A DNA stretch of 64,000 nucleotides from an uncultured Pseudomonadota bacterium. Its GTDB lineage: Bacteria > Pseudomonadota > Gammaproteobacteria > Methylococcales > Methylomonadaceae. The DNA is taken from positions 101,765-165,764 of the forward strand of contig CAVPMI010000001.1 of assembly GCA_963705975.1 (NCBI GenBank), written 5' to 3'. A program made the position numbers and the translations under genes. Below are positions 7,838-40,172 of this stretch, one piece after another (the first letter of the stretch is position 1; every line of letters begins with the position of its first letter). The notes under the pieces are model-generated. The model ran no database searches. It was not told the DNA's origin and saw nothing but the letters and a program-made list of their open reading frames with translations.

Positions 7838-7953
7838 AGGTAAGTAAGCGTTCAGTACCTCTTTTTGAAAACGAGGGGTTAGGGTAGGTTTTTTAAATAA
7901 ATCCCTCTCGATCTCTCTTTTTCAAATGGGGAAGTGAACGCTTACTGAGGTAA
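7838..7953. repeat. ~115-bp imperfect palindromic (MITE/REP-like) element
   Basis: GTAAGCGTTCAGTACCTCTTTTTGAAAACGAGGGG on the left matches the reverse complement of CCCTCTCGATCTCTCTTTTTCAAATGGGGAAGTGAACGCTTAC on the right, with a few mismatches and indels. Confidence 0.4.
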
Positions 7954-9613: not shown

Positions 9614-10811
9614 TGCCGTCTTCCGAACCGTCTTGAACACTGACCGTGTCGCCTTGCGCGATCTGGTTGCCGATATTGAGCGCGACCTTTTCTCCTACAG
9701 CAACGCCTGACGCGATTTCGATGCTGTTGCCGTTGTCGCGGGCAATCGAGACATTTCTGTAATCTACCTTGCCGTTTTTGTCAATCACTGCAATTTGTGG
9801 CCCGTTGCTGCGGAAGACAAGGGCCGCAGCCGGCACTTGAAGTAGGCCGATATTGGGAATTTCGAAACTGGCATTGATATACATGCCGGACACAAGCGCA
9901 TGATCCGGATTGGAAATATCCACCTCCACGCGAAGGGTACGGGTCTGCTTATTGATTGCGCTGGCGGTGCGCGTCACCTTGCCGTCAAAGGTGCGACCAT
10001 GAACATTGCTAGCGGTTATATGCGCGACTAGGTCTGTGCTTATATCTTGGGCCGCGCTTTGCGGTACATCGACAAATACGCGCATCGGATCATCCTGCAC
10101 GATGCGATACAGCGGCGTCGTGTTCGCTGTACTGCCGGCGGTTACAAGATTACCGATATCGATATGCCGTTCGGTAATCGTGCCGTCATAGGGAGACGTA
10201 ACTTGCTTGAAAGCCGCGAAAGCCGTATAGCGGTCAACATTGGCCTTATCGAGGCCAACTTGCGCTATAGCGCGATCATAATCCGCCTTTGTGGACTCTC
10301 GTTCCTGTTGGGATACAACCCCTATAGGTGAATCTTTCCAGCGTTCATAGGTAGACTTGGTGAACTCAACCAGCGCTTGGGACGATTTGAGCTTGGCTTG
10401 TGCCGCGACAAGTTCCGCATCGAGTTCCGGTGTCTCCAGAGTCGCAAGAATCTGATCATTGGTAACGTGATCGCCGATATCCGCGTTCCATTTGCGGACA
10501 TAGCCATCCACGCGGGCATAGATGACGCTTTCATACCATGCGGCTGTCGCGCCCGGCAGCGTCAGCGAAACGGAAGCCGGAGCTTTTTGCACGGTAGCGA
10601 CTTCGACCAGAGCGGGGGTTGTTGCTGTTTCTTTGGTCAATTGAGCGACATCATTTTCATGACTTGAGCGGGCATGATGGACGAGAGCAAAGCCAACGCA
10701 GAGAATAATAGCAACCGAAAGAGCCGATGTTCCCAATTTGCGGCCGGTTGCGGCAAGAGGCTGTGCGGCTTTGGAATGCGTTTCCGATAGTGGGTTTTCA
10801 GACGGATGCAC
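9594..10811 (-). CDS. RND efflux periplasmic adaptor (membrane fusion protein)
   Basis: Lipoyl-like hairpin ARVDGYVRKWNADIGDHVTNDQILATLETPELD plus beta-barrel/MP domains. The preferred start is GTG 10811, preceded by AAGGAG at 8-nt spacing, which overlaps the pump stop codon by 14 nt. Confidence 0.85.
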   Translation of the reverse strand: MHPSENPLSETHSKAAQPLAATGRKLGTSALSVAIILCVGFALVHHARSSHENDVAQLTKETATTPALVEVATVQKAPASVSLTLPGATAAWYESVIYARVDGYVRKWNADIGDHVTNDQILATLETPELDAELVAAQAKLKSSQALVEFTKSTYERWKDSPIGVVSQQERESTKADYDRAIAQVGLDKANVDRYTAFAAFKQVTSPYDGTITERHIDIGNLVTAGSTANTTPLYRIVQDDPMRVFVDVPQSAAQDISTDLVAHITASNVHGRTFDGKVTRTASAINKQTRTLRVEVDISNPDHALVSGMYINASFEIPNIGLLQVPAAALVFRSNGPQIAVIDKNGKVDYRNVSIARDNGNSIEIASGVAVGEKVALNIGNQIAQGDTVSVQDGSEDGNAHAQK

Positions 10812-18426: not shown

Positions 18427-19008
18427 TAAGTTAACCTTTCGTCTATGATCGTAGCTGCTCATGACACGACCGTTTAAAACATAATTGCTTAAAACAGTAG
18501 CGTAAAAGCAACAGACTGGTATCAGTTTAATAAAATTAGCCGAAAGATTAAAATGATTAATATGGATTAGACTATCTAAATATTAGATAATTATGTATTT
18601 TTTCAATTTCCAACCCACTGTTCACCAACTCCATATTTAGGCTGGAAACACCGTTTTTGCTGATGCGCAAACAGGCTTATCCGGCCTACTAAGTATTGAT
18701 CTACATTCGCTGAATAGTTACCAATGATCATGAAATACCAGCAAAACTTATGCTGCCATTTTGACCTGGGGCAACACATGCCGGTGGTGTTGCTAAACAA
18801 GCTGGTCTGCAAGTGGCGGAAATTACAAAATTTAACATTGCATCTATACTATATCTATAGCTAGTGTAGACTTGTGATAATGGCGAGCTTTAGCTGGAAC
18901 GAACTTGGGCTAAGTATATGTTCTTCTTAGTTGGGCTTCTCGCGGTTAAGGCGGTTGTTAACATTTAATGCTTTTGGGCTCTACACACTGAACATACCTG
19001 GATGGTAT

Positions 19009-28646: not shown

Positions 28647-29753
28647 GTGTTAATTTTTCGACATTTTCTTTTGTCCGGCGGCTTGTTTTTGATCGCCGCA
28701 AACTGCCCGGCGGCGGAAACCAAACTTTCCGTGCCTATGGATTACCGCTTGATTCGCAATGTGTTGATCCATCAATTGTATACCGGCGCCGGTGAAACGG
28801 CGCGGGTCTGGAAAGACGGTAAGGACTGTAGCTTTTTGGATCTATCCAATCCGCAAATTGGTGGTGAATCCGGCTTGGTTAAAATCGACAATAATATTCA
28901 CGCTCGAATTGGGATTAATTTGGGCGGTAAATGCATGCCGGCGCTTGAGTGGAGCGGTATGCTGGAAACTTTGCAGAAACCGACCTTGGACGCCACAGGC
29001 GATGTATTGAGCTTTCCGGTCAGCAGCGCTATGGCGACTGATGCCAACAGCCAACAATTGCATGTCAACCAGTTGCAGGATTTAATCAATAAAGTCGTAC
29101 AGCCAAAACTGGCGGAATTGAAAATTGATTTAAAACAGTCACGAAACGACATTATTAAAACCTTGCTGCCTTTTATCGATGCCGATGATACTGAAAAGTT
29201 GCAGGATACGGTGAACAGTCTACGTTTCAAGCAGGCGCAAGCTGATGAGAAAGGCTTACAGATTACCGTCGGCTTTACCGAACTTAAGCAGAAGAAGGCT
29301 GATATCAAGCCGGTTGCTGCATTCAATGCCGAAGAGTTGCAGCAATGGCAGGCGATTTGGAAAAATTGGCAGGCCAGTTTGGAAATTACGCTAAATAAGC
29401 CGCCGCTGGCTAAACAAGCGGAAAGCGATAAGGATACACTTCGTGAGGTGATGCAAGAGGCTGGTGCCGCATTTGAAAAAGGTTTAACCGAGCCGGACAC
29501 AGGTGACAATGATCCGGTACGGGGATTTTTTAATGATTCCTGGGATAAACTTGCGCCCTTGCTGCGCACAGCTTCCGAACAGATGCCCGGCGCGGAAGGC
29601 TTGCGCTATTTGACGCTAATAGCCGCTACAGATTTAATGTACGAAGTGGAGGCGATTTCCTCGCCGCTAGGGCTGGATATTTCTGCTAACGGCTTGCGCA
29701 AATTAGCGAGGTCCTATTTGGCGGAGCAGGCGGGGCGGAAGAAAGCACAGTAA
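28647..29753 (+). CDS. Hypothetical secreted protein
   Basis: 368-aa ORF with a GTG start preceded by AAGGAG, and a signal-like N-terminus (LLSGGLFLIAANCPAAE). No family recognised. Confidence 0.5.
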   Translation: MLIFRHFLLSGGLFLIAANCPAAETKLSVPMDYRLIRNVLIHQLYTGAGETARVWKDGKDCSFLDLSNPQIGGESGLVKIDNNIHARIGINLGGKCMPALEWSGMLETLQKPTLDATGDVLSFPVSSAMATDANSQQLHVNQLQDLINKVVQPKLAELKIDLKQSRNDIIKTLLPFIDADDTEKLQDTVNSLRFKQAQADEKGLQITVGFTELKQKKADIKPVAAFNAEELQQWQAIWKNWQASLEITLNKPPLAKQAESDKDTLREVMQEAGAAFEKGLTEPDTGDNDPVRGFFNDSWDKLAPLLRTASEQMPGAEGLRYLTLIAATDLMYEVEAISSPLGLDISANGLRKLARSYLAEQAGRKKAQ

Positions 29754-29791
29754 TGATTTAGAAGAGTATGGAGGGGACGTGCTTAAGGCAT

Positions 29792-29938
29792 TTAATACAG
29801 CTCTCCAACTAAATCCAGATAAGTCATATATAGCCGCATATCAAACTCCAGTTGGTGATAGTCCGGTTCCATATAGGCGCATAACTTATAAAATGCCTTG
29901 TTGTGGTCTTTTTCACGCAAATGCGCCAGTTCATGCAC
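29792..29938 (-). pseudogene. C-terminal fragment of a DUF45/YgjP-type zinc metallopeptidase gene (split by the insertion)
   Basis: Own minus-strand translation: VHELAHLREKDHNKAFYKLCAYMEPDYHQLEFDMRLYMTYLDLVGELY*. Its N-terminal partner is at 39123..39486. Confidence 0.75.
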
Positions 29939-30009
29939 AAAGATCACGCAAGGGTTTTCATAATATTAATTATTATAAATCAATAATTTAGATAATATTG
30001 ATTTTAAGG

Positions 30010-30116
30010 TTTACCCCATGTTTTACCCCAAAACTTACCCCAAACTTACCCCAAATTTACCCCAAATTTACCCCAAATTTACCCCGAAATTTACGGTTTA
30101 CGGGCGTAATTTACAC
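30010..30116 (+). repeat. Phased array of (T/C)TTACCCC repeats (7 copies, 11-12-bp period) plus 3 degenerate copies
   Basis: Copies start at 30010, 30022, 30034, 30045, 30056, 30067 and 30078. Degenerate copies follow: TTTACGG (30090), TTTACGGG (30097) and ATTTACAC (30109). The array lies between the left junction and the 3' end of the 348-aa recombinase gene. Confidence 0.8.
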
Positions 30117-31144
30117 TCATTATTTTCAAAACTCATATTGTTTTTTGTAACAAGCTTAACTTTTCTTGTGCCTCGGATGTCACCGACCTTTACAGATGAT
30201 TCTTTTTTTGAATTACCATAAAAAGTTTGTGATATATCGTTACAGTGACCGAGAACAATGCTAACTTGTTCGTCAGTCAATGTTGCTTTGATGTGTGATG
30301 CAAAAATATGTCTAAATGTGTAAGGCGATATGTAATTTTTAAGACGAGGAAAAACAGACTTTGAGTAATTTCTCATCTGTTCGCCAAAATTTTTAGCGCT
30401 ATCAATTTTTATTATCGATTCGCCATTATTGAGATGATTTAAAAGATAATGAAATTCAGGTGTATCACTTTTTACTGTAAAACTTCTAGTTTCTTGCCCA
30501 TATTTGCCTTTATGAGTTTTTTTAGAATTTACTATAAATCTTATACCACCATCGCAAACAGCACAAGAAACACCACCTTCAATTTCGGCGGGACGAGCAC
30601 CACATAAAGATAACAGGCATATAGGCAAAATATACTTACTATCCATTTTTTTAAGATAATCAAAATAATCCTTCTGAAATTCACGAGGAAGCTTAGAAAT
30701 CTGCAATTTCTTTGACCTTGATTTTTGTTTAGGTTTATTGGCTTGCTTCCATTCAGATTCATATTGTCCATTCTCAGATTTTTTTAAATGATTACCGGCA
30801 AAATCTGGCGGTATGCGTTGAATACATTCAACACAATATTGTAGCTTTTTAATAAGATTGATCTTTTTTTGATGTTCTTTTTCTTTATCGGCTTTTATTA
30901 ATAATTCCTTCGCTTTTGTTTCATAAATGTAACACCAAGCCGCTCTATACGCATAATACGTATTACGGCTTTTAGATAGCGTAAGAGGGTCAGTAGAGTG
31001 TTTAGCCATCCGACGTACGCATAATGCGTACTGTTTGATGGTAGGCTCTGATGGCTGTTTGCGTGGTGGTAATGCTCGAATGTAAGCACTTGCTTCATTC
31101 ATGACCATATACCATGATTGAATATCTTGATTATCCATAATCAA
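30098..31144 (-). CDS. Tyrosine recombinase-like protein (atypical box II)
   Basis: 348 aa. LSLCGARPAEI (catalytic Arg), ...SPYTFRHIFASH... (R-H present, but Tyr where the first His of HxxR is expected), VLGHCND and QTFYGN (candidate nucleophile Tyr). Confidence 0.7.
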   Translation of the reverse strand: MIMDNQDIQSWYMVMNEASAYIRALPPRKQPSEPTIKQYALCVRRMAKHSTDPLTLSKSRNTYYAYRAAWCYIYETKAKELLIKADKEKEHQKKINLIKKLQYCVECIQRIPPDFAGNHLKKSENGQYESEWKQANKPKQKSRSKKLQISKLPREFQKDYFDYLKKMDSKYILPICLLSLCGARPAEIEGGVSCAVCDGGIRFIVNSKKTHKGKYGQETRSFTVKSDTPEFHYLLNHLNNGESIIKIDSAKNFGEQMRNYSKSVFPRLKNYISPYTFRHIFASHIKATLTDEQVSIVLGHCNDISQTFYGNSKKESSVKVGDIRGTRKVKLVTKNNMSFENNECKLRP

Positions 31145-31227
31145 CCTACATTTAAAAGTTATATGTTTTTACTTCATTTTATTACGTAAAAAAGCGCGTG
31201 AACGCTATCGCTAACAGCCACGCACCT

Positions 31228-31253
31228 ATATTATTGCCATATGGCAATAATAT
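31228..31253. promoter_or_regulatory. Perfect 26-bp palindrome ATATTATTGCCATATGGCAATAATAT upstream of the 348-aa recombinase gene
   Basis: All 13 pairs around the centre at 31240/31241 were checked base by base. It lies between the end of a small ORF (31257) and the recombinase start (31144). Confidence 0.5.
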
Positions 31254-31256
31254 TAA

Positions 31257-31430
31257 CTAATACATTTGCTCTTCTTCCTTACGCTCCATATCTTGCTCAA
31301 GTGTCCACTGCAGATAAGCTTGTTCTCCAAGTTCATGAAGATAATTTATATCAGCAATCTCTTCACAGCGTGGGCAAAGAAAATCATACATTGTACTTTG
31401 AGAAGGGTGAACTATACGTATTGTGATCAT
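31257..31430 (-). CDS. Small hypothetical protein (57 aa, acidic C-terminus)
   Basis: Part of track ORF 31257..31502. The internal start MITIRIVHPS... has AAGGA upstream, and the protein contains CPRC. No family recognised and the coding status is uncertain. Confidence 0.3.
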   Translation of the reverse strand: MITIRIVHPSQSTMYDFLCPRCEEIADINYLHELGEQAYLQWTLEQDMERKEEEQMY

Positions 31431-32119
31431 AAATAATTCCTTAAAATAAATGGTTGTCATTAGGACTAACTTTAATAAATGTGTATGATAATAATATATC
31501 ATGCAAAAATTTAAGTGTTAATACTAGTTAAAACAACTTTATTATAAAAACAATAGGTTTTTTCAAAATATATATTTAAAAGTACGGACGTACGAAAACT
31601 ATTTGCATTCGTTTTGAAGGGGAATTTTAATAGCTAAAAATGGTATCGCGTATATAAAATAATTATAAGAAATGGTTATTTTCAGGTTCATCGTTGTGTT
31701 AGCATCAAAGGCTGGCAATGGTATAGGTGGTAAAAATGGTATAATGCATGCAAGGTATTGATAGTATTTGGTAATTTCATGGTGCACCATCCTTTTAGCA
31801 TCAAGAATTGGCAAATGCTACGTTTCCCTGGCATTGAAAGACCTACAATTAGCTAAATTTGACTTGAAATTACAGTATCTAGTTTTGGGATAATTATGTA
31901 CTATACAATTTTTTGCATTAACGTATTAGCGAGTAAGAGCATGGAAAATTTTATTCCCATCATTAGCAGTATGTTTGTTTGTGTCGTGAACCAGTTTAAT
32001 TCAAACTTCGTTAAAGTGCCTATCCTAGAACATATAAATATAATAACCAAAGCTAAATTAATTTGGCATTATATACAACCAATAATTATTAATAAATGCT
32101 AGTTTTCTAAGCGTAGGAG

Positions 32120-33559
32120 TTGATTTTGAAATTTATTCGGAAATTTTTTCGCAAAAACCAGGCTTTGCCCTTAGTTAACGTTACAAACTATTCAACAAGT
32201 GAACCTAAGCAAACAGTTGTAAATAACGAAAAGACCAAGGTGATTAAGCTCGCGGCTGAGCAGGGAGATGTAAATGCACAATTTTATCTTGGGTATATGT
32301 ATGACCATGGAAAAATAGTAGTTCAAGATTATAAAGAAGCATATAAATGGTACAAATTAGCCGCAGAACAGGGAAATATAAACGCACAATTGCAACTTGG
32401 CTTTAAGTATGACCAAGGAATAGGACTAATTCAAGATTATAAGGAAGCTTTTAGATGGTTCACATTAGCCGCAGAACAGGGAAAAAAGGATGCACAATTT
32501 GCAATTGGCTATATGTACGACAATGGGAATGGAGTAAGTCAAGATTATAATGAAGCTATTAAATGGTACAAATTAGCCGCAGAACAAGGTGATGTAATAG
32601 CACATTTTTCTCTTGGTTTTATGTATTATGAAGGAAATAAAGTAATTCAAGATTATAAGGAAGCATTTAAATGGTTTACATTAGCAGCAGAACAAGGAGA
32701 TGTAAAATCACAATTTAATCTTGGTCTTATGTATGATAAAGGACAAGGACTAATTCAAGATTATAAGGAAGCTTTTAAATGGTATAAATTAGCCGCAGAA
32801 CAAGGTGATTCCGATGCACAAAATAAACTTGGTGTTAGGTATGAGCAGGGGAAAGGTGTAATTCAAGATTATAAGGAAGCTTTTAAGTGGTACAAATTAG
32901 CCGCAGAACAGGGTGAAGCGCTTGCACAAGTTAATCTCGGTCTTATGTATGAAGAAGGACAAGGAGTAATTCAAGATTATAAGGAAGCTTCTAAGTGGTA
33001 CAAATTAGCCGCAGAACAAGGTGATGCAAAATCACAATCTAAGCTTGGCTATATGTATGACAAAGGATTAGGACTAATTCAAGATTGTAAAGAAGCTTAT
33101 AAATGGTACAAATTAGCCGCAGAACAAGGTGATGTAATAGCACAATATAATATTGGTGTTATATATAATATAGGACAAGGAGTAATTCAAGATTATAAGG
33201 AAGCTTTCAAGTGGTTTAAATTAGCCGCAGAACAAGGTGATGTAATAGCACAATATAGTCTTGGTAATATGTATGATCAAGGCAAAGGAGTAATTCAAGA
33301 TTATAAGGAAGCTTTCAAGTGGTTCAAACTAGCCGCAGAACAAGGTGATGCTGATGCACAAAATAAACTTGGTATTATGTGTAGTCTAGGGCAAGGTGTC
33401 GATCAGAATTATATTTTTGCACATAAGTGGTTTAATATTTCAGCCGTAAATGGGGATAAAAATGCAAGAAATAACAGAGATATTTTAGCAAGTAAAATGA
33501 CGTTAGATCAAATAGAAACAGCACAGAAATTAGCAAGAAAATGTATGGATAATTCATAA
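32120..33559 (+). CDS. Sel1-like repeat (SLR/TPR-like) protein, 11 consecutive 36-aa repeats plus C-terminal cap, no signal peptide
   Basis: The repeat unit KLAAEQGDxxAQxxLGxMYxxGxGVIQDYKEAFKWY occurs 11 times, followed by FNISAVNGDKNARNNRDILASKMTLDQIETAQKLARKC. AGGAG at 32115-32119 favours TTG 32126 as the true start. The N-terminus is basic and not hydrophobic. Confidence 0.85.
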   Translation: MILKFIRKFFRKNQALPLVNVTNYSTSEPKQTVVNNEKTKVIKLAAEQGDVNAQFYLGYMYDHGKIVVQDYKEAYKWYKLAAEQGNINAQLQLGFKYDQGIGLIQDYKEAFRWFTLAAEQGKKDAQFAIGYMYDNGNGVSQDYNEAIKWYKLAAEQGDVIAHFSLGFMYYEGNKVIQDYKEAFKWFTLAAEQGDVKSQFNLGLMYDKGQGLIQDYKEAFKWYKLAAEQGDSDAQNKLGVRYEQGKGVIQDYKEAFKWYKLAAEQGEALAQVNLGLMYEEGQGVIQDYKEASKWYKLAAEQGDAKSQSKLGYMYDKGLGLIQDCKEAYKWYKLAAEQGDVIAQYNIGVIYNIGQGVIQDYKEAFKWFKLAAEQGDVIAQYSLGNMYDQGKGVIQDYKEAFKWFKLAAEQGDADAQNKLGIMCSLGQGVDQNYIFAHKWFNISAVNGDKNARNNRDILASKMTLDQIETAQKLARKCMDNS

Positions 33560-33567
33560 TCAATAGT

Positions 33568-34377
33568 ATGTGTCCTAAAGAAATCAAAAAAGAGCCTGTT
33601 TGCATTAAAGAACTCGAAGTACCGGTTCTTGTTGCCCACTTTTCTGAATGGGTAACTAATTTATGCAAACGCTTTCAAACGACAGAGGACGACATGCAAT
33701 TGTTTATTGAGAAGCGTAATCGTATCATAAAATATTTGCAAGATGAATTAATACCACTATCTTACTTTTGTCAACATTACACTTTGCAACACCCTGGAAT
33801 GTACATTAGGTACTATCCAGGAAGCCAACAATCTTTTGATGCCAAGATACTTGATTCAAATAAGGAAGATTTTGAGAAACTTGAAGTGACACTAGCAGAT
33901 TTTGGCTACGAAGAGAGAATCAGAAACGAGTTGTTATTAAAGTTCGGCTGCGTACCGCTATACTCAACTTTTGATAATGAGATACTTGATATAGATGGTG
34001 AGGTAACAACAGATAATTTTAACCACAAGAGCAAGAGATATGAGTTGTTATCAAAGTTTGGCTGCGCCCCTGAATACATCGATGGAAAACCTCATCCTTG
34101 TAAAGCACCAGAACTGGAAGTGATCAATGCCAATATTATTGTTGATAAATGCATTGAAAAAGTTCGAGCCGCCGTTGAAAAAAAAATCAAAAAAAGCGAA
34201 TCCGGTAAATACAAAGATTGTAACCTAATTGTTGCATTTGATGACTTTTGCTTGTTATCGGAAGAACACTTTGCACAAACCCGCGCTGAATTTTTCCAGA
34301 TCAAGACTTGCTTTCCAGTTGTCTACTATGTCGGTCTCACAGGTAGGTTGTTTCTTAAGGTGTCAAGTCTTGGTTGA
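33568..34377 (+). CDS. Hypothetical 269-aa protein, apparently co-transcribed with the Sel1-repeat gene
   Basis: The ORF starts 8 nt after the Sel1 gene stop. It has an internal duplicated motif, ELLLKFGCVP (aa 121-130) and ELLSKFGCAP (aa 159-168). No family recognised. Confidence 0.5.
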   Translation: MCPKEIKKEPVCIKELEVPVLVAHFSEWVTNLCKRFQTTEDDMQLFIEKRNRIIKYLQDELIPLSYFCQHYTLQHPGMYIRYYPGSQQSFDAKILDSNKEDFEKLEVTLADFGYEERIRNELLLKFGCVPLYSTFDNEILDIDGEVTTDNFNHKSKRYELLSKFGCAPEYIDGKPHPCKAPELEVINANIIVDKCIEKVRAAVEKKIKKSESGKYKDCNLIVAFDDFCLLSEEHFAQTRAEFFQIKTCFPVVYYVGLTGRLFLKVSSLG

Positions 34378-34651
34378 GGCTGTATATTCTAGTCAGTAGC
34401 TACTGATAGTGCCTACGCAGAATTTCAATTACCTTCAAACGATGGGCAGAAAAGTAATTCAAAGGCTTTTAGATACGATACGAGATAAATATTGACCTAA
34501 TCTTTTCTACAATAGGATACTATCTAGCCATTATTAATCTGATTAATTGCAATATAAAAATCGGAATGTACTATTGATTTATTGCTTAATCAATACTCGA
34601 AGAAGAAAAGCAGGGATATTTATATGTAACTATAATAAATTATAATATAAA

Positions 34652-34882
34652 TTATTTTAGACGTAAGATGGTATCTTCTTCAATGTCATCATTAATTATA
34701 TTTTCCGTATACTTTTTATTCTTTTCATCTTTAAGGATTGAAATAAATAAAGTATCACCACCGGATGAACCTGATGAGCCGCAAGATCCTTCAGGTAATT
34801 TCTTAAGTAATGATGTGTTTAATACAAACATTTTAGTGTTTTCTGATAGGAACGGATTTCTATTTTCCATATATATTTCCAT
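34652..34882 (-). CDS. Hypothetical 76-aa ORF (low confidence)
   Basis: Track ORF in very AT-rich DNA downstream of the Rep gene, containing GSCGSSGSSGG. There is no other support. Confidence 0.2.
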   Translation of the reverse strand: MEIYMENRNPFLSENTKMFVLNTSLLKKLPEGSCGSSGSSGGDTLFISILKDEKNKKYTENIINDDIEEDTILRLK

Positions 34883-35117
34883 ATTTAAATTTGTAAACTT
34901 AAAAATTTGACATAGATTGGTCTTTAGGTTAATGCCAAGTTTTATTTTTTTAAGTAATTTAATGTATTAAGTAAAAATGATTATAATTAATTTATAAATA
35001 ACATAAGTGTTTATATATATTTATCCCCTAACAAAACTATAGCATACAAATAGAGTATCTCAATAGTAAAAAACTTATTTAATTAACATTTTAATAGTTG
35101 TATTGTATTTTTTATTC

Positions 35118-36929
35118 TTACAACAGTAAATTGTTATGAGTATTATATAAGGAATATAAAAACTTATATGTTTTATATATATCTCTATTATGTATTATTA
35201 TATGCTTATAATAATTTACAACCACAACCGCCTTTGTTTTTTTATTATCATCATCATTATTATTTTTATTTATATTATTTGCGCTCCGCGTACACTTATT
35301 GATAGTAATTCGAGAACAAACAGGCGTTGTCTCGTGCGCTGCGGCAGTGGCCGCCTCGCCCATTCCATCGCCTGTTTGCACGGCGTCCGCCGCATTAAAA
35401 CTAAATTCATCCAAACATTCGGAAAGAGTATTAAATGATTGACTAATAGAATTACCAGATATATATTTATTTATAACAAAAGACCACTCTTTTATACGTG
35501 TAATAGTAGTTAAGCCATTGATAATTACACCTTTTATTTTTTTCTTATCTTCTTTATAATTATTTACATAATCAAGCTTATGAAGCTTAACGTCATTAGA
35601 TAAAACCAAAGTCATAAATTTAGAGTAATCCTTAAAAAATGAACATACACGCAACTGCTCAAGAAGTGGATCTGATTGTTTATCATTACGCAAGCGTCCA
35701 ATCTCACGCCATAAACCAACAGCGCAACCGCCAAAAAATTGAAACTGACGAATAGCCCAATCTGAACTAAAACCACGAATACGCTCGCCTTGTTCGGCAT
35801 GACTAACTTCGCCGCGATTTGCGCCTGTATTTTTACCTATATACTTAGCAACGTAACCCGCCGCACCGGCCTTATTAGGATCAAGCTTAACTGATTTAAA
35901 ACGTGAGCCTGAATTTGGAATCTTACTATTGCCTTTACCGAAATATGTAAAACCTTCCGAAAGATGATTATGACCCTTAAGCGGAGCTGCGCCATTTTCG
36001 CAACCATCAACTTTTAAAGCTTGATATGACATACGTTCGTGAACTCTATCCGCATGCTGTGGCGCAAAAAATATTAAAATATGGCGATGTGTACAGCCAT
36101 CACGATGCGGCTCTGTAACCTGCAAGCCAATTATATTAATGCCATCGCGCGCGCAGGCAGAGCGAAAACGTGCCCAGACTTTTTGTAAGTGATTTTTACT
36201 ATCTAAAGGTTCAGCACCGCTATACTTTTTGTTTACAACACTACCTGGACAAGAATGAAAAGATGAAGGACAAGTTATAGTCCAAAAATAAGCCGCCATG
36301 CCGTTTTGCTTTGCATATTCTTGATAACCATGAATACGAAGCATTAACTCATTGTATCGATTTTGTGGATTTGCTTGAGACTTATCATATACACCAAGCA
36401 TACTTAATCTTTTACCCGTTGACTGATCAAAAATAAAAATCTTAGCCATCATTTCGCGTATTGAATTTTGCTTTTCGCGATATTCCTCTAAATTTTCATC
36501 AGTGATATAGCGATTTTTACCGGTGTCAGGATTTGCACCCAATAAGCCTTTACGCATTGCATACATATTTGCAGCACGCTTACGATAAGTCTTCACGCGT
36601 TTATTCCAAAACTTACGCATACTTACTTTTACTTTAAATGCATAAAAATGTTGATAAGTTGGACAACCGAACGTTGTAAACCTTAAAAACTTTCTGACAT
36701 TCAATATAAAATCAAATTCATCCGGGTAACACATTGTAAATAATTCGATTATCTGCAAATATTCATAATTATGAAGATAATTAATATCAAAAGTTAACAA
36801 TTTACCATCAATAAATGATTCAAAATAATCTAACACTTTTTCAGAAATTAACGATCTTTCGTTTTTGACGTTAGACATAAAATTACAAATCCATTTGTTT
36901 AATCTATTTATATTAGTATAATAGCACAT
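35118..36929 (-). CDS. HUH-superfamily rolling-circle replication initiator (phiX174 gpA / P2 gpA-like)
   Basis: 603-aa ORF with the three RCR motifs in canonical order. These are FWTITCP (aa 215-221), EPHRDGCTHRHILIFF (HUH; aa 273-288) and GYVAKYIGKN (two-Tyr Y-x-x-K-Y; Y359/Y363). The exact start is uncertain and the C-terminal ~60 aa are low-complexity. Confidence 0.75.
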   Translation of the reverse strand: MCYYTNINRLNKWICNFMSNVKNERSLISEKVLDYFESFIDGKLLTFDINYLHNYEYLQIIELFTMCYPDEFDFILNVRKFLRFTTFGCPTYQHFYAFKVKVSMRKFWNKRVKTYRKRAANMYAMRKGLLGANPDTGKNRYITDENLEEYREKQNSIREMMAKIFIFDQSTGKRLSMLGVYDKSQANPQNRYNELMLRIHGYQEYAKQNGMAAYFWTITCPSSFHSCPGSVVNKKYSGAEPLDSKNHLQKVWARFRSACARDGINIIGLQVTEPHRDGCTHRHILIFFAPQHADRVHERMSYQALKVDGCENGAAPLKGHNHLSEGFTYFGKGNSKIPNSGSRFKSVKLDPNKAGAAGYVAKYIGKNTGANRGEVSHAEQGERIRGFSSDWAIRQFQFFGGCAVGLWREIGRLRNDKQSDPLLEQLRVCSFFKDYSKFMTLVLSNDVKLHKLDYVNNYKEDKKKIKGVIINGLTTITRIKEWSFVINKYISGNSISQSFNTLSECLDEFSFNAADAVQTGDGMGEAATAAAHETTPVCSRITINKCTRSANNINKNNNDDDNKKTKAVVVVNYYKHIIIHNRDIYKTYKFLYSLYNTHNNLLL

Positions 36930-37304
36930 CTTTTTTAAATTAAAAATGATATATTATTAATATATTATAAGTAAATTATATATTATTATAATCATATTAT
37001 ACATGGTACTATTTACATTAAAACTAACGTATAACAACAGTTGTCGTTTGCTCGCGCGTGAGTCTTATACCGCCCTGCGCGCGGCCGGCGAAGGGTTGAA
37101 ATAATTTATAAAATTACTTATTAATTAGCGCATTGCACCGCAACGGCTAACGAATTAAGATCAAAAGCTATCAATAATGGAGTAAGCGCCTGGAATGCAT
37201 TCACGAAGAATGAAAGGCGTGAGTTGTTTTAAAGAAAGAACAAAAAAACTCGCGGGTAGTATGTGCTCGTTTTTTTTATAAATGGATTATATTTATTATT
37301 AAGA

Positions 37305-37528
37305 TTAGATTATCTATTGCATTATAATTAGATTATCTGCTAAAATGTAAATCAAAAAATAACTCTGGTGTGAATTTCAATCGTCTTTTTTATTTAATTA
37401 TTTGTTTCACGTGGAACAGTTATAATGTTAGATAACTATATAGGTATTATTTAGCTGATAACCATTTAATAATTATAATGCCATTATATACTTTATATTG
37501 TGATTATAATTATGAAATGATTATCTCG
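37305..37528. repeat. Scattered TTAGAT(T/A)A(T/C)CT-type repeats (iteron-like) in the Rep-int intergenic region
   Basis: TTAGATTATCT at 37305-37315 and 37328-37338 (23-bp spacing), TTAGATAACT at 37428-37437 and GATTATCT at 37519-37526. Confidence 0.35.
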
Positions 37529-37612
37529 ATTATAAAAGCAAAATAAGTATAAAGGTATTATATATAAATAAAAACAAACAAATAAACAAACTAACTAACA
37601 AATAAACAAAGT

Positions 37613-37698
37613 GGTGTAAATTAAAGGTGTAAATCGGTGATTCTTACACCTGTAAATCATGAGTGTAAATTACAGGTGTAAATCGGTGATTTTTACAC
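37613..37698. repeat. Nested direct/inverted repeat cluster built on TGTAAAT / TTACAC
   Basis: xxTGTAAAT occurs at 37613, 37626, 37649, 37662 and 37675. The 17-mer GGTGTAAATCGGTGATT occurs twice (37626-37642 and 37675-37691), each time followed by TTACAC. There is also a 9-bp perfect inverted repeat, CACCTGTAA (37647-37655) and TTACAGGTG (37670-37678). Confidence 0.7.
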
Positions 37699-39006
37699 TC
37701 AGATATGGCTGTAAGAAAAAGGGTATTTTATAAGCTCAATACCTTCTTTTTTTAACGCATAATCCGTACCACCAGAATAAAGACCGTAAGTGATAGTCTT
37801 CTTTTTATGACCGACAATATCAGCCACAGCGCCTTCGGGAAATTTATGATTTTCTAACTGCGTAACAAAAGTTTTACGGATCGAATGAAATACTTGTAAA
37901 TCTGAAAAATCAAAAGAGGCTTTCAAGCGACAAAATCTATTTTTAATACTATGCGAACGCTCACCATAAGAATTTGGCTTTTGATCTGTTAAGAGATAAC
38001 CATCTTTTGTATTGGCAATTAATCGCTTAACAACTGGCATAATTTTTGAATGAATAGGAAAATTACGAATACCTGCGCGAGTTTTACTATCACAAATATT
38101 TATTGTAAATTCATTCAATTCATAATCAAAAATTACATCCTCAACTTTTATATTACAAATTTCCTCTATTCTTGCGCCTGAATATGCGGCTAAAAGTATT
38201 AAATCAAGTAAATCATAATCTATACCATAATTGCGGCGGTCTCTTTGCCAGCATCTTTCGTACATGTTTACAATATCGATAGGCTTAAAAGGTATCCAAC
38301 TTTCAGCCGATTCCTTTTCTTGAGTGATTTTAGACTTAGAACCCAAAACACCTAAAAAATGTATAGTTAAATCAAGTTTTGAATTATCACGAACATATTC
38401 AATAAATGCATAACAATTTGTTTTTATACGTGATATGGTCGAAAAACTTCTTTCTTCCTCTAGAGACTTAAACCATGTGCGAAGCGCATAATGTTCAATA
38501 TTATTAAGGATTGGAAAATAATCGATAAAAAGCCTAACATCTTTTGATTTACGCTCATTGGTTTTTATTGAATGTTTTAAACCTGCTTGCCAAGAAAAAT
38601 AGTAAGTATCAGAAATTAATGCTTCACCATCAATGACTTTTTGCATAACACCCAAACCCTCTTCACCATATTTTTTATAAATACGTGACTGAGTAGCTTC
38701 AAATTGTATTTGCCGGTCTGGATTCAGTTCCATGCCTATATCAGCATATTCATTAATAGTTTTTATTTGATCCCAAAACGGCTTCCAAAACACCCCCTCG
38801 CAAATTAATTCTGAACCTTGCCCCCTCGCGTTAGCAATTTGAGATTTCCACAGCATGACGTATGGCGCAGATTTAAGCTCTGCCTTTTTTTCATTCGATT
38901 CTTTAAGTGAGACTTTAAACTTAGATTTTCCGAGAATTTTACGCACATCCTTCGGAATTATAAGCAAAGCATAATATGTATTACCGCGCTTTTCTAAATA
39001 TGACAT
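37699..39006 (-). CDS. Phage-type tyrosine integrase
   Basis: 435 aa. N-terminus RGNTYYALLIIPKDVRKILG (typical integrase arm-type domain), then AYSGARIEEI, FHSIRKTFVT (HxxR), IVGHKK and TYGLYSG. Confidence 0.9.
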   Translation of the reverse strand: MSYLEKRGNTYYALLIIPKDVRKILGKSKFKVSLKESNEKKAELKSAPYVMLWKSQIANARGQGSELICEGVFWKPFWDQIKTINEYADIGMELNPDRQIQFEATQSRIYKKYGEEGLGVMQKVIDGEALISDTYYFSWQAGLKHSIKTNERKSKDVRLFIDYFPILNNIEHYALRTWFKSLEEERSFSTISRIKTNCYAFIEYVRDNSKLDLTIHFLGVLGSKSKITQEKESAESWIPFKPIDIVNMYERCWQRDRRNYGIDYDLLDLILLAAYSGARIEEICNIKVEDVIFDYELNEFTINICDSKTRAGIRNFPIHSKIMPVVKRLIANTKDGYLLTDQKPNSYGERSHSIKNRFCRLKASFDFSDLQVFHSIRKTFVTQLENHKFPEGAVADIVGHKKKTITYGLYSGGTDYALKKEGIELIKYPFSYSHI

Positions 39007-39026
39007 TTGGTTACCTGAGCAATTAA

Positions 39027-39058
39027 TTTACCCCGGCATTTTACCCCAGTTTTACCCC
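39027..39058 (+). repeat. Three TTTACCCC repeats (same orientation as the left-end array)
   Basis: Copies at 39027-39034, 39040-47 and 39051-58, between the integrase start codon and the right junction. Confidence 0.75.
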
Positions 39059-39122
39059 AGCAACCAGCCGACAAAGCTTACAGGCCAAGGCCCGCAAGGG
39101 TTTCAGGTCAGCTGTGATCATC

Positions 39123-39486
39123 CATGCACTGTTATCATGCGCAAAAATTCCAGCGGCGCTTGTTTGAACACAGAGCCGATCCTAATTTCATGTTTGGCTT
39201 TCAAATTACTGCCTTGCACTCTGGAAACAAAGGAATGCAAACCTAAGGCTTGGTGGAGCACATCCAGTTTATCGTCATAAATGATTTTGCTCAGCGGGCA
39301 GGATTGCCGTAGATATTGGTTCTTGATTTCCATCACATAGCTGTACAGGGTTTTGTCGGTGCAAATACTGTGTGGATTCGGATATTTTTTCAGCAGCACA
39401 GCAGCCAGTTTTTGACTGTCTAGTAGTTTGAGCACCTGATCTGTGACGGTGGGCGCATAGCCGGCCAAATATTTTAAAGAGCGCAT
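39123..39486 (-). pseudogene. N-terminal fragment of the DUF45/YgjP-type metallopeptidase gene
   Basis: MRSLKYLAGYAPTVTDQVL...IGSVFKQAPLEFLRMITVH, then element-derived G-stop. The start, 39486, lies 11 nt downstream of the upstream gene stop. It joins in frame to 29792..29938. Confidence 0.75.
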
Positions 39487-39496
39487 AGTAAAAGCT

Positions 39497-39784
39497 TTAA
39501 TTCCACGGCGGTAAATCATTGTCATAGGCGACAAAATCTTTAACGCTTGGCCGGGTGATGGTATCGGCTGCCGGTTTGCCGGCTTTGGTTTGGTCTTTTG
39601 CTGATGCGGGTTTTGCAGGTGAATCCCTGGTAGCTGATTCCTCCGCCCAATTTGCAAATAACGCGATGTCAACAGTACCCGGCGCATACCATTTTTTAAC
39701 GGAGGCATCCCATCTTGCGCCTAAGGCTTTTGCTGCGTCCTTTTCGGCATACGGAACATTGAGGTAGGTTTTTGTGCTTGTCAT
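39497..39784 (-). CDS. DUF5710-like small protein
   Basis: 95 aa. YLNVPYAEKDAAKALGARWDASVKKWYAP matches my recollection of the DUF5710 motif seen at the N-terminus of TraC-type primases. Confidence 0.65.
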   Translation of the reverse strand: MTSTKTYLNVPYAEKDAAKALGARWDASVKKWYAPGTVDIALFANWAEESATRDSPAKPASAKDQTKAGKPAADTITRPSVKDFVAYDNDLPPWN

Positions 39785-39833
39785 CAGTGCTAAGCTTGAT
39801 TTATGATATTAACATTTGAACATAAGCAATGAC

Positions 39834-40172
39834 TTATAGCAATTCTTCTGCACTCAGGATAGGGTAAGCCTCATAAGCCGGCTGCTCGTAAGGGTGTACC
39901 TTGATAAGCGCTTGCAGGGCGGTTTTAATCAGTGGAGCTGAGCAGATCATTTCCACTTTGTATTCGGCAACTCTTTCCAACTTAGCCGTTTCGCCCACGA
40001 ACGGTTGGCTGCCCGGTAATGGACGGAATTGGCCCTCGCCCAAGGTTTGCCAGCAACAGCGGTCATAGTCTTTATATCGACCGGCGCCAGCCTCGAACAA
40101 AGCGTTTTTCACCAGTTCAAGATGGCTGGCCGGCACGTAAAAACTCAGTTTATATATCGTGTGCTGTGTCAT
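39834..40172 (-). CDS. Small conserved protein (NIF3-related / COG3323-like candidate)
   Basis: 112-aa ORF: KLSFYVPASHLELVKNALFEAGAGRYKDYDRCCWQTLGEGQFRP.... The family name is tentative recollection. Confidence 0.45.
   Translation of the reverse strand: MTQHTIYKLSFYVPASHLELVKNALFEAGAGRYKDYDRCCWQTLGEGQFRPLPGSQPFVGETAKLERVAEYKVEMICSAPLIKTALQALIKVHPYEQPAYEAYPILSAEELL

Follow-up and report, generated by a model that had tools for sequence, protein, structure and literature searches.

Phage lambda attP, with its arm-type sites P1, P2 and P'1-P'3, provides the paradigm of a heterobivalent Int. Accessory proteins also act on attP arms, P2 Cox and lambda Xis each binding phased direct repeats in one arm. 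The arm-binding consensus of P2 attP is tgTGGaCa (PMC3448106). For the KplE1 integrase IntS, the P' arm sites have a conserved TAAA and overlap the int promoter, and int is negatively autoregulated (PMC2951348). Here we analysed a window (the whole stretch of DNA under study) of 64,000 nucleotides from a Methylococcales bacterium that contains a small island with tandem repeats at both ends, and we followed these repeats through relatives of the island's integrase. Comparison of these sequences makes it very probable that both arrays are arm-type binding sites of the element's own heterobivalent 435-aa tyrosine integrase. The repeats are most likely a well-known kind of site, unusual only in numbering 7 to 10 copies at one end instead of 2 or 3.

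The island is 9191 bp (9.2 kb) long and AT-rich, with ~33% G+C against ~48% in its flanks. Its ends carry the following features:

29932..29938, + strand: attL crossover core (overlap region) CATGCAC, from excision reconstruction and the empty site.
39123..39129, + strand: attR crossover core CATGCAC, from excision reconstruction and the empty site.
29939..29947, + strand: candidate core-type integrase site AAAGATCAC, inverted partner of 39114-39122 at 7/9 positions, read from the reconstructed attP.
39114..39122, + strand: candidate core-type integrase site GTGATCATC, likewise read from the reconstructed attP.
29978..29990, + strand: IHF-consensus match AATCAATAATTTA, a single match, located between core and left array on the P arm.

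The two halves of a host gene lie on the - strand at 29792-29947 and 39118-39708, the N-terminal half stopping with ...RMITVHG* at 39118 and the C-terminal half starting with ...FVHELAHL at 29947. In silico removal of 29939-39129 restored an open frame across CATGCAC (...RMITVHELAHL..., ...EFLRMITVHELAHLREKDH...), and the restored protein aligns along its entire length with M48/YgjP-like metallopeptidases of Methylococcales (167-180 aa) at 87-89% identity. A syntenic contig (L081) represents the empty site, its uninterrupted gene reading ATGATAGCG-GTGCATG-AACTGGCGC. We placed the crossover core at the 7-bp CATGCAC because joining there restores the open reading frame and matches this empty site. 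On the int strand the reconstructed attP reads GTGATCTTT-GTGCATG-GATGATCAC, so that inverted 9-mers matching at 7/9 positions flank the overlap; GTGATCTTT and GATGATCAC are plausible core-type sites and are unrelated in sequence to the GGGGTAAA motif of the arms. The IHF match at 29978-29990 is only suggestive, since such matches are not enriched in the window.

An 11-mer, CGCAAGGGTTT (29947-29957 and 39093-39103), was also considered as the crossover core and rejected: with this core the host gene would retain an in-frame stop, in contrast to CATGCAC, which rebuilds the HELAH motif and fits the empty site. Within the element CGCAAGGGTTT forms an 11-bp direct repeat on both sides of the core, and in attP one copy lies immediately beside a core-type 9-mer and the other 10 bp beyond the second 9-mer. 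The island splits the M48/YgjP-like gene exactly within its HExxH codons and does not bring a new 3' end for it, and the gene is thus inactive for as long as the island stays integrated. The interrupted gene adjoins lexA and a DUF5710 gene. It has the same orientation as int, and read-through into int is therefore possible.

The repeats themselves form two arrays just inside these ends, one of them followed by degenerate copies:

30010..30085, + strand: left array, int-distal, P arm; seven (T/C)TTACCCC copies, GGGGTAA(A/G) when read on the int strand.
30090..30116, + strand: degenerate left copies TTTACGG (start 30090), TTTACGGG (30097) and ATTTACAC (30109).
39027..39058, + strand: right array, int-proximal, P' arm; three TTTACCCC copies, at the same position as the arrays in 67/77 relatives.

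Exact TTTACCCC copies start at 30010, 30022, 30056, 30067 and 30078 in the left array, with the variant CTTACCCC at 30034 and 30045, and at 39027, 39040 and 39051 in the right array, on the + strand like every left copy. The window holds 9 exact TTTACCCC copies against 1.75 expected (9 or more in 0/100 shuffles), and Tandem Repeats Finder reports 30010-30094 as a repeat of period 11 with 7.5 copies and a score of 115. The sequence, the shuffle count and the repeat finder thus agree with the earlier note on copies at both ends of the element, all on the + strand, and the degenerate copies are present as it described them. Its distances of 72 and 65 bp to the core also hold (30010-29938 = 72; 39123-39058 = 65), the core having been checked independently against the empty site. 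Start-to-start spacings are 12, 12, 11, 11, 11, 11 and 12 bp on the left and 13 and 11 bp on the right. A period of about one helical turn, as first proposed, therefore describes the central left units only. The right array ends 20 bp upstream of the int ATG (39006). The left array lies next to the 3' end of the gene for a 348-aa protein, and the degenerate copies at 30090-30116 run over the final 6 codons and the stop codon of that ORF. The 7-copy left array is base for base identical in two independent assemblies from other sequencing runs and is therefore not an assembly artefact.

Between the arrays, the island encodes an integrase, a replication initiator and three further proteins:

37699-39006, - strand: 435-aa tyrosine integrase (int), DUF6538 N-domain (E = 1.4e-8) and C-terminal Phage_integrase PF00589 (E = 9.9e-15).
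35118-36929, - strand: 603-aa P2 gpA-type rolling-circle initiator (Rep), PF05840 (E = 2.5e-52).
33568-34377, + strand: 269-aa protein, function unassigned.
32120-33559, + strand: 479-aa Sel1-repeat protein.
30098-31144, - strand: 348-aa protein with tyrosine-recombinase motifs and no Pfam match.

The best phage matches of Rep are P2/HP1-like 'nicking at origin' proteins of the HUH nickase type. This gpA-type nickase is the only initiator of the element, which has no iteron-type initiator (winged-helix Rep, TrfA or pi). Neither Rep nor the 348-aa protein gave a match in searches of viral contigs, tblastn of the integrase against phage records returned nothing beyond weak catalytic-domain matches, and Rfam found no match over 29000-40000. 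Within the Sel1-repeat gene, 32267-33380 consists of ten 108-bp tandem units with ~79% matches, and another assembly of the same element (L202) breaks within this gene. The 770-bp intergenic region between rep and int is otherwise very AT-rich and contains a GC-rich patch (gctcgcgcgtgag...ccctgcgcgcggccggcg) at 37040-37100, a candidate nick site or double-strand origin for the gpA-type Rep.

To place the arrays in a family context, we fetched 80 genomic loci with integrase relatives, of which 77 were testable for int-proximal arrays. The nearest integrase homologues are only ~40% identical, and all combine DUF6538 with Phage_integrase. An array was scored where an exact 7-mer recurred in tandem at 10-14 bp spacing in the 170 bp preceding int, with 1868 windows from the same loci as controls. 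An int-proximal tandem was present in 67/77 relatives against 8.8% of control windows, with a spacing of 13 bp in 62 of the 67 and 12 bp in 5. Nearly all loci have 2-3 direct repeats of an 8-10-bp motif ~20-120 bp (mostly 30-80) upstream of the int start, and these proximal arrays have int on one side and, on the other, an att core consisting of a tRNA 3' fragment. Helical phasing, which the earlier note had made part of its description, does not extend to the family, the period of the relatives being 13 bp.

In 23 relatives a second array of the same motif lies 3.4-10.3 kb downstream, inward of the second att core copy by ~70-86 bp, which is the position taken by the left array in the window. 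The distal array has the orientation of the proximal one in 23/23 cases, and a tandem of the motif on the outer flank was found at only 2 loci. The motif varies among elements (TGTGGTAA, TGGGTTAA, GTGGGGGA, TGGGTTGA, AGGGGTAA, GTGTACCA and others), and both arms of any one element carry the same motif; TGTGGTAA is the commonest among the DUF6538-integrase relatives, and one relative (L015) has the motif of the window, GGGGTAAA. Given this shared layout, the order core, ~80 bp, array, int, cargo, array, ~80 bp, core is a family signature. The relatives' arrays, at the same positions and in the same orientation, strongly support the proposal that the repeats are arm-type sites on the P and P' arms. 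Homologues without arrays, or with arrays at unrelated positions, had been named as evidence against that proposal, and the relatives checked do not show such a pattern.

The relatives differ from the island in their targets, which are tRNA or tmRNA genes and not a metallopeptidase gene. ARAGORN placed seven of them at tRNA-Ser, tRNA-Leu or tmRNA genes, save one (L037), at whose site it detected no tRNA gene. One locus (L075) has four same-orientation GGGGTAA tandems (2516-2537, 7914-7934, 9955-9975 and 18591-18611), a sign that at least two related islands may have inserted there in tandem at a single site. In a scan for TTTACCCC(N3-5)TTTACCCC(N3-5)TTTACCCC, at least 120 metagenome contigs (L082-L201) had three TTTACCCC copies at 11-13 bp spacing; none of these contigs encodes anything related to Int, Rep or the 348-aa protein.

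Which protein reads the arrays was approached through 25 delimited elements, namely the 23 relatives with both arrays, a Methylomonas element (L203) and the element in the window. The integrase gene is the only gene common to all 25. A ~200-aa serine recombinase of the resolvase/invertase type occurs in 17/25 (L002, L003, L010, L013, L015, L021, L027-L029, L037, L054, L057, L059, L069-L071 and L079), and nothing else real is common; small ORF 'families' seemingly shared by the relatives proved to be antisense ORFs inside int. The window element and L203 lack the serine recombinase; in its place they have a member of the 348-aa tyrosine recombinase family. Relatives of the window's Rep, 348-aa or 269-aa protein are absent from all 80 loci.

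We compared motif similarity with the similarity of each integrase domain in an all-pairs Mantel analysis of the 25 elements. Motif similarity correlated with that of the N-terminal domain (r = 0.49), also when the catalytic domain was controlled for (partial r = 0.42, permutation p ~2e-4) and when near-duplicates were in addition removed (partial r = 0.37, p = 0.001), whereas the catalytic domain had no such relation once the N-domain was controlled for (partial r = -0.004, permutation p = 0.49). The signal appears only in the all-pairs analysis; when relatives were ranked by the identity of their N-domain to that of the window's Int, those sharing GGGGTAA did not stand out. This co-variation points to the DUF6538 N-domain as the likely reader of the arrays. 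In an AlphaFold (AF2) model of Int residues 1-95, residues 1-60 form a compact beta-beta-alpha-beta-alpha fold with pLDDT above 90. Foldseek of the N-domain model against the PDB gave no match at E <= 0.001, and hhalign of the N-domain profile against the lambda Int N-terminus gave a non-significant E = 0.047 over 15 columns. A text search of a library of papers returned none that mentions DUF6538.

The Methylomonas element L203 is informative for both alternatives in which a protein other than Int would use the repeats. It encodes a DUF6538 integrase, TrfA and a homologue of the 348-aa protein, and it carries GTGTACCACA twice, 13 bp apart, at both att ends, ~4-4.4 kb from the gene of the 348-aa homologue at the nearest. 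The 348-aa family is rare: we found six homologues, with tyrosine-recombinase motifs and mostly without a Pfam match, among them those at L203 10001-11035, L205 5108-6154 and L206 2894-3952. Elsewhere these genes lie beside TrfA replication genes, and in the window the protein accompanies a gpA-type Rep instead. It may be a multimer-resolution recombinase of integrative replicons. Such repeats are absent after the homologue's gene in L205 and L206.

The earlier note had considered an origin or copy-control role equally possible, with the left array, alone or together with the right one, acting as iterons for the 603-aa Rep or as handcuffing sites on the excised circle. The seven to ten tandem copies with their 11-12 bp period do look like iterons, the element does encode a replication initiator, and a related repeat cluster lies in the rep-int intergenic region (37613-37698). 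Rep, however, is a P2/HP1 gpA-type HUH nickase by its strong PF05840 match. A gpA-type nickase nicks a specific origin sequence and is not known to act through iterons. This Rep is absent from all 80 loci whose integrases go with such arrays, as is the 348-aa protein; the motif keeps a family-conserved position upstream of int, and the arrays accompany int and not any Rep. The 8-bp core in an 11-bp repeat is shorter than typical iterons of 17-22 bp, and the left array lies 5 kb from rep at the extreme end of the element. Even in L203, which has TrfA, the arrays stand beside the att cores and not beside the 348-aa homologue. Equal standing for the iteron reading is thus not sustained; we disfavour it and regard it as highly improbable.

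An accessory protein could instead polymerise on the phased repeats of the expanded left array and bend the P arm, either a directionality factor of the Xis/Cox/TorI type or the 348-aa tyrosine recombinase, whose gene the array abuts at its 3' end. The expansion of the array on that side fits this proposal. The motif, however, is identical on both arms, here and in each of the 23 relatives, and int is the only universal gene, and for these reasons we disfavour an accessory platform. The 348-aa homologues, moreover, go with TrfA modules, in L203 at 4.4 kb from the nearest array and in L205 and L206 without such repeats after the gene, and Pfam recognised no gene for a recombination directionality factor in the element. 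We give this proposal only a slight chance.

The preferred reading therefore remains that Int itself uses the repeats, and several features expected of arm-type sites are present: a separate N-domain, repeats on both sides that are unlike the core sites, a conserved position and co-variation of motif and integrase. The arm-type reading is supported at the family level, and the arrays appear to belong to the arm sites of a hitherto uncharacterised integrase subfamily. Binding of Int to the arrays is what these comparisons would predict.

The copy number of the left arm sets the window apart. The longest chain of the motif anywhere in the locus is two copies at 57 and three at 10 of the 67 loci, the 23 relatives delimited by both arrays have 2-3 copies per arm, and the window has seven, which bears out the earlier remark on an unusual number of copies (7 good ones, where none of the 67 relatives exceeds 3). 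From the position of the array in relatives, the surplus copies run further into the element. Near-identical 11-mers make up the centre of the array (CTTACCCCAAA twice, followed by TTTACCCCAAA twice), and this near-identity together with the 11-bp period suggests recent replication slippage as the likely origin of the expansion. The left spacing of 11-12 bp contrasts with the 13 bp found nearly always in relatives, and Int may be unable to engage every copy in the canonical manner.

For the additional copies two options may be considered: neutrality, or a gain in local Int occupancy and DNA curvature. The first option, in which the two or three core-proximal copies (30010, 30022 and perhaps 30034) do the work and the rest is a neutral, microsatellite-like expansion, comes close to an even chance in our judgement while falling a little short of it. 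Copy numbers among relatives are 2-3 and do not reach 4. Counted from the overlap on the int strand, the pair of copies closest to the core stands at 79 and 91 bp, close to the 73 and 86 bp of relatives, and the central units combine near-identity with a non-canonical period. Set against this, the array is identical in two further sequencing runs, without length polymorphism, though these runs may sample one population. Neutral expansion is a sub-case of the arm-site explanation and compatible with it.

The second option starts from the AAATTT tracts, which the expansion sets in helical phase. Phased A-tracts predict intrinsic curvature. The phased copies and tracts might form a curved, Int-coated P arm that replaces a host bending protein or the absent directionality factor, or the copies might titrate Int and so set the balance of integration, excision and replication, with an inverted TTTACACC cluster in the same circuit; we think either role unlikely.

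That third cluster (motif TTTACACC/GGTGTAAA, 37613-37698) follows immediately after the int stop codon, with mostly inverted orientation, and lies outside what the arm-site model accounts for. It is a 49-bp tandem duplication, in which two 36-nt units 49 bp apart each contain a GGTGTAA(N11)TTACACC hairpin. Positions 37651-37692 and 30087-30128, the latter taking in the degenerate left copies, form a 42-nt imperfect inverted repeat (76%), and the cargo is therefore bracketed by inverted repeats; a perfect 15-mer, GTAATTTACACTCAT, is common in inverted orientation to the third cluster and the inner edge of the left array. The cluster has no counterpart in the relatives, and a search for inverted repeats bounding the 348-aa homologues in L203, L205 and L206, made to explain it, found none. 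A single-strand origin, a terminator, extra Int sites or an inversion site are possibilities.

A working model based on these data is as follows. On the excised circle the arrays would flank the core at about -72 bp (P) and +65 bp (P') in direct orientation, and Int would contact the GGGGTAAA motifs through its N-terminal DUF6538 domain and the inverted 9-mers around the 7-bp overlap through its core-binding and catalytic domains. Bridging of arm and core would assemble an intasome, which would insert the island within the M48/YgjP-like gene, at its HExxH codons, and later excise it. Int bound at the P' copies would also repress int transcription; such autoregulation is probable by analogy, as the P' copies end 20 bp before the int ATG. 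A promoter scan over the P' array found no consensus sigma-70 site. The left arm would have grown from the family-typical 2-3 sites to 7 through slippage of the 11-bp unit during replication.

The general picture of site-specific recombination is unchanged by this work. Many proteobacterial integrases begin with DUF6538, which Pfam lists as a domain of unknown function; the proposed reading of arm sites gives it a concrete and testable role. A rule for island ends also emerges, which can help to delimit islands: each att core should have, ~70-85 bp inward, a tandem of two or three repeats with 13-bp spacing, and the two tandems should share one orientation. For the locus in the window, the att sites are fixed and a conserved metallopeptidase gene is seen to be split inside its active-site motif, and the expanded arm, as a natural variant, lends itself to the question of the number of arm sites that an intasome can use.

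Compared with known systems, the island shares with plasmid iterons (RK2 TrfA, pPS10 RepA, R6K pi) tandem repeats of one orientation and roughly helical period on a replicating mobile element, but it has no initiator of the iteron type, and across relatives its repeats go with the integrase. As in lambda attP, arm and core sites form two classes, here proposed to be read by separate domains of one protein, the arm sites lie tens of bp from the core, and an IHF-like consensus stands between arm and core; unlike in lambda, the arms of the window have the same orientation and are roughly symmetric about the core, and no Xis was identified in the element. The attL of KplE1/HK620 IntS is similar in having int-proximal sites directly upstream of an int gene that reads away from the att core, and the conserved TAAA of KplE1 recurs in the motifs of the DUF6538-integrase relatives; in contrast to KplE1, no sigma-70 consensus was detected over the P' array of the window, and in the integrated state int may also receive read-through from the interrupted host gene. 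From the attP arm sites of P2 and 186 the island differs in the DUF6538 N-domain of an only distantly related integrase, in belonging to small islands and not to phages, and in a left arm of at least 7 copies with an 11-12 bp period, yet the arm-binding consensus of P2 resembles TGTGGTAA, the commonest motif among the relatives.
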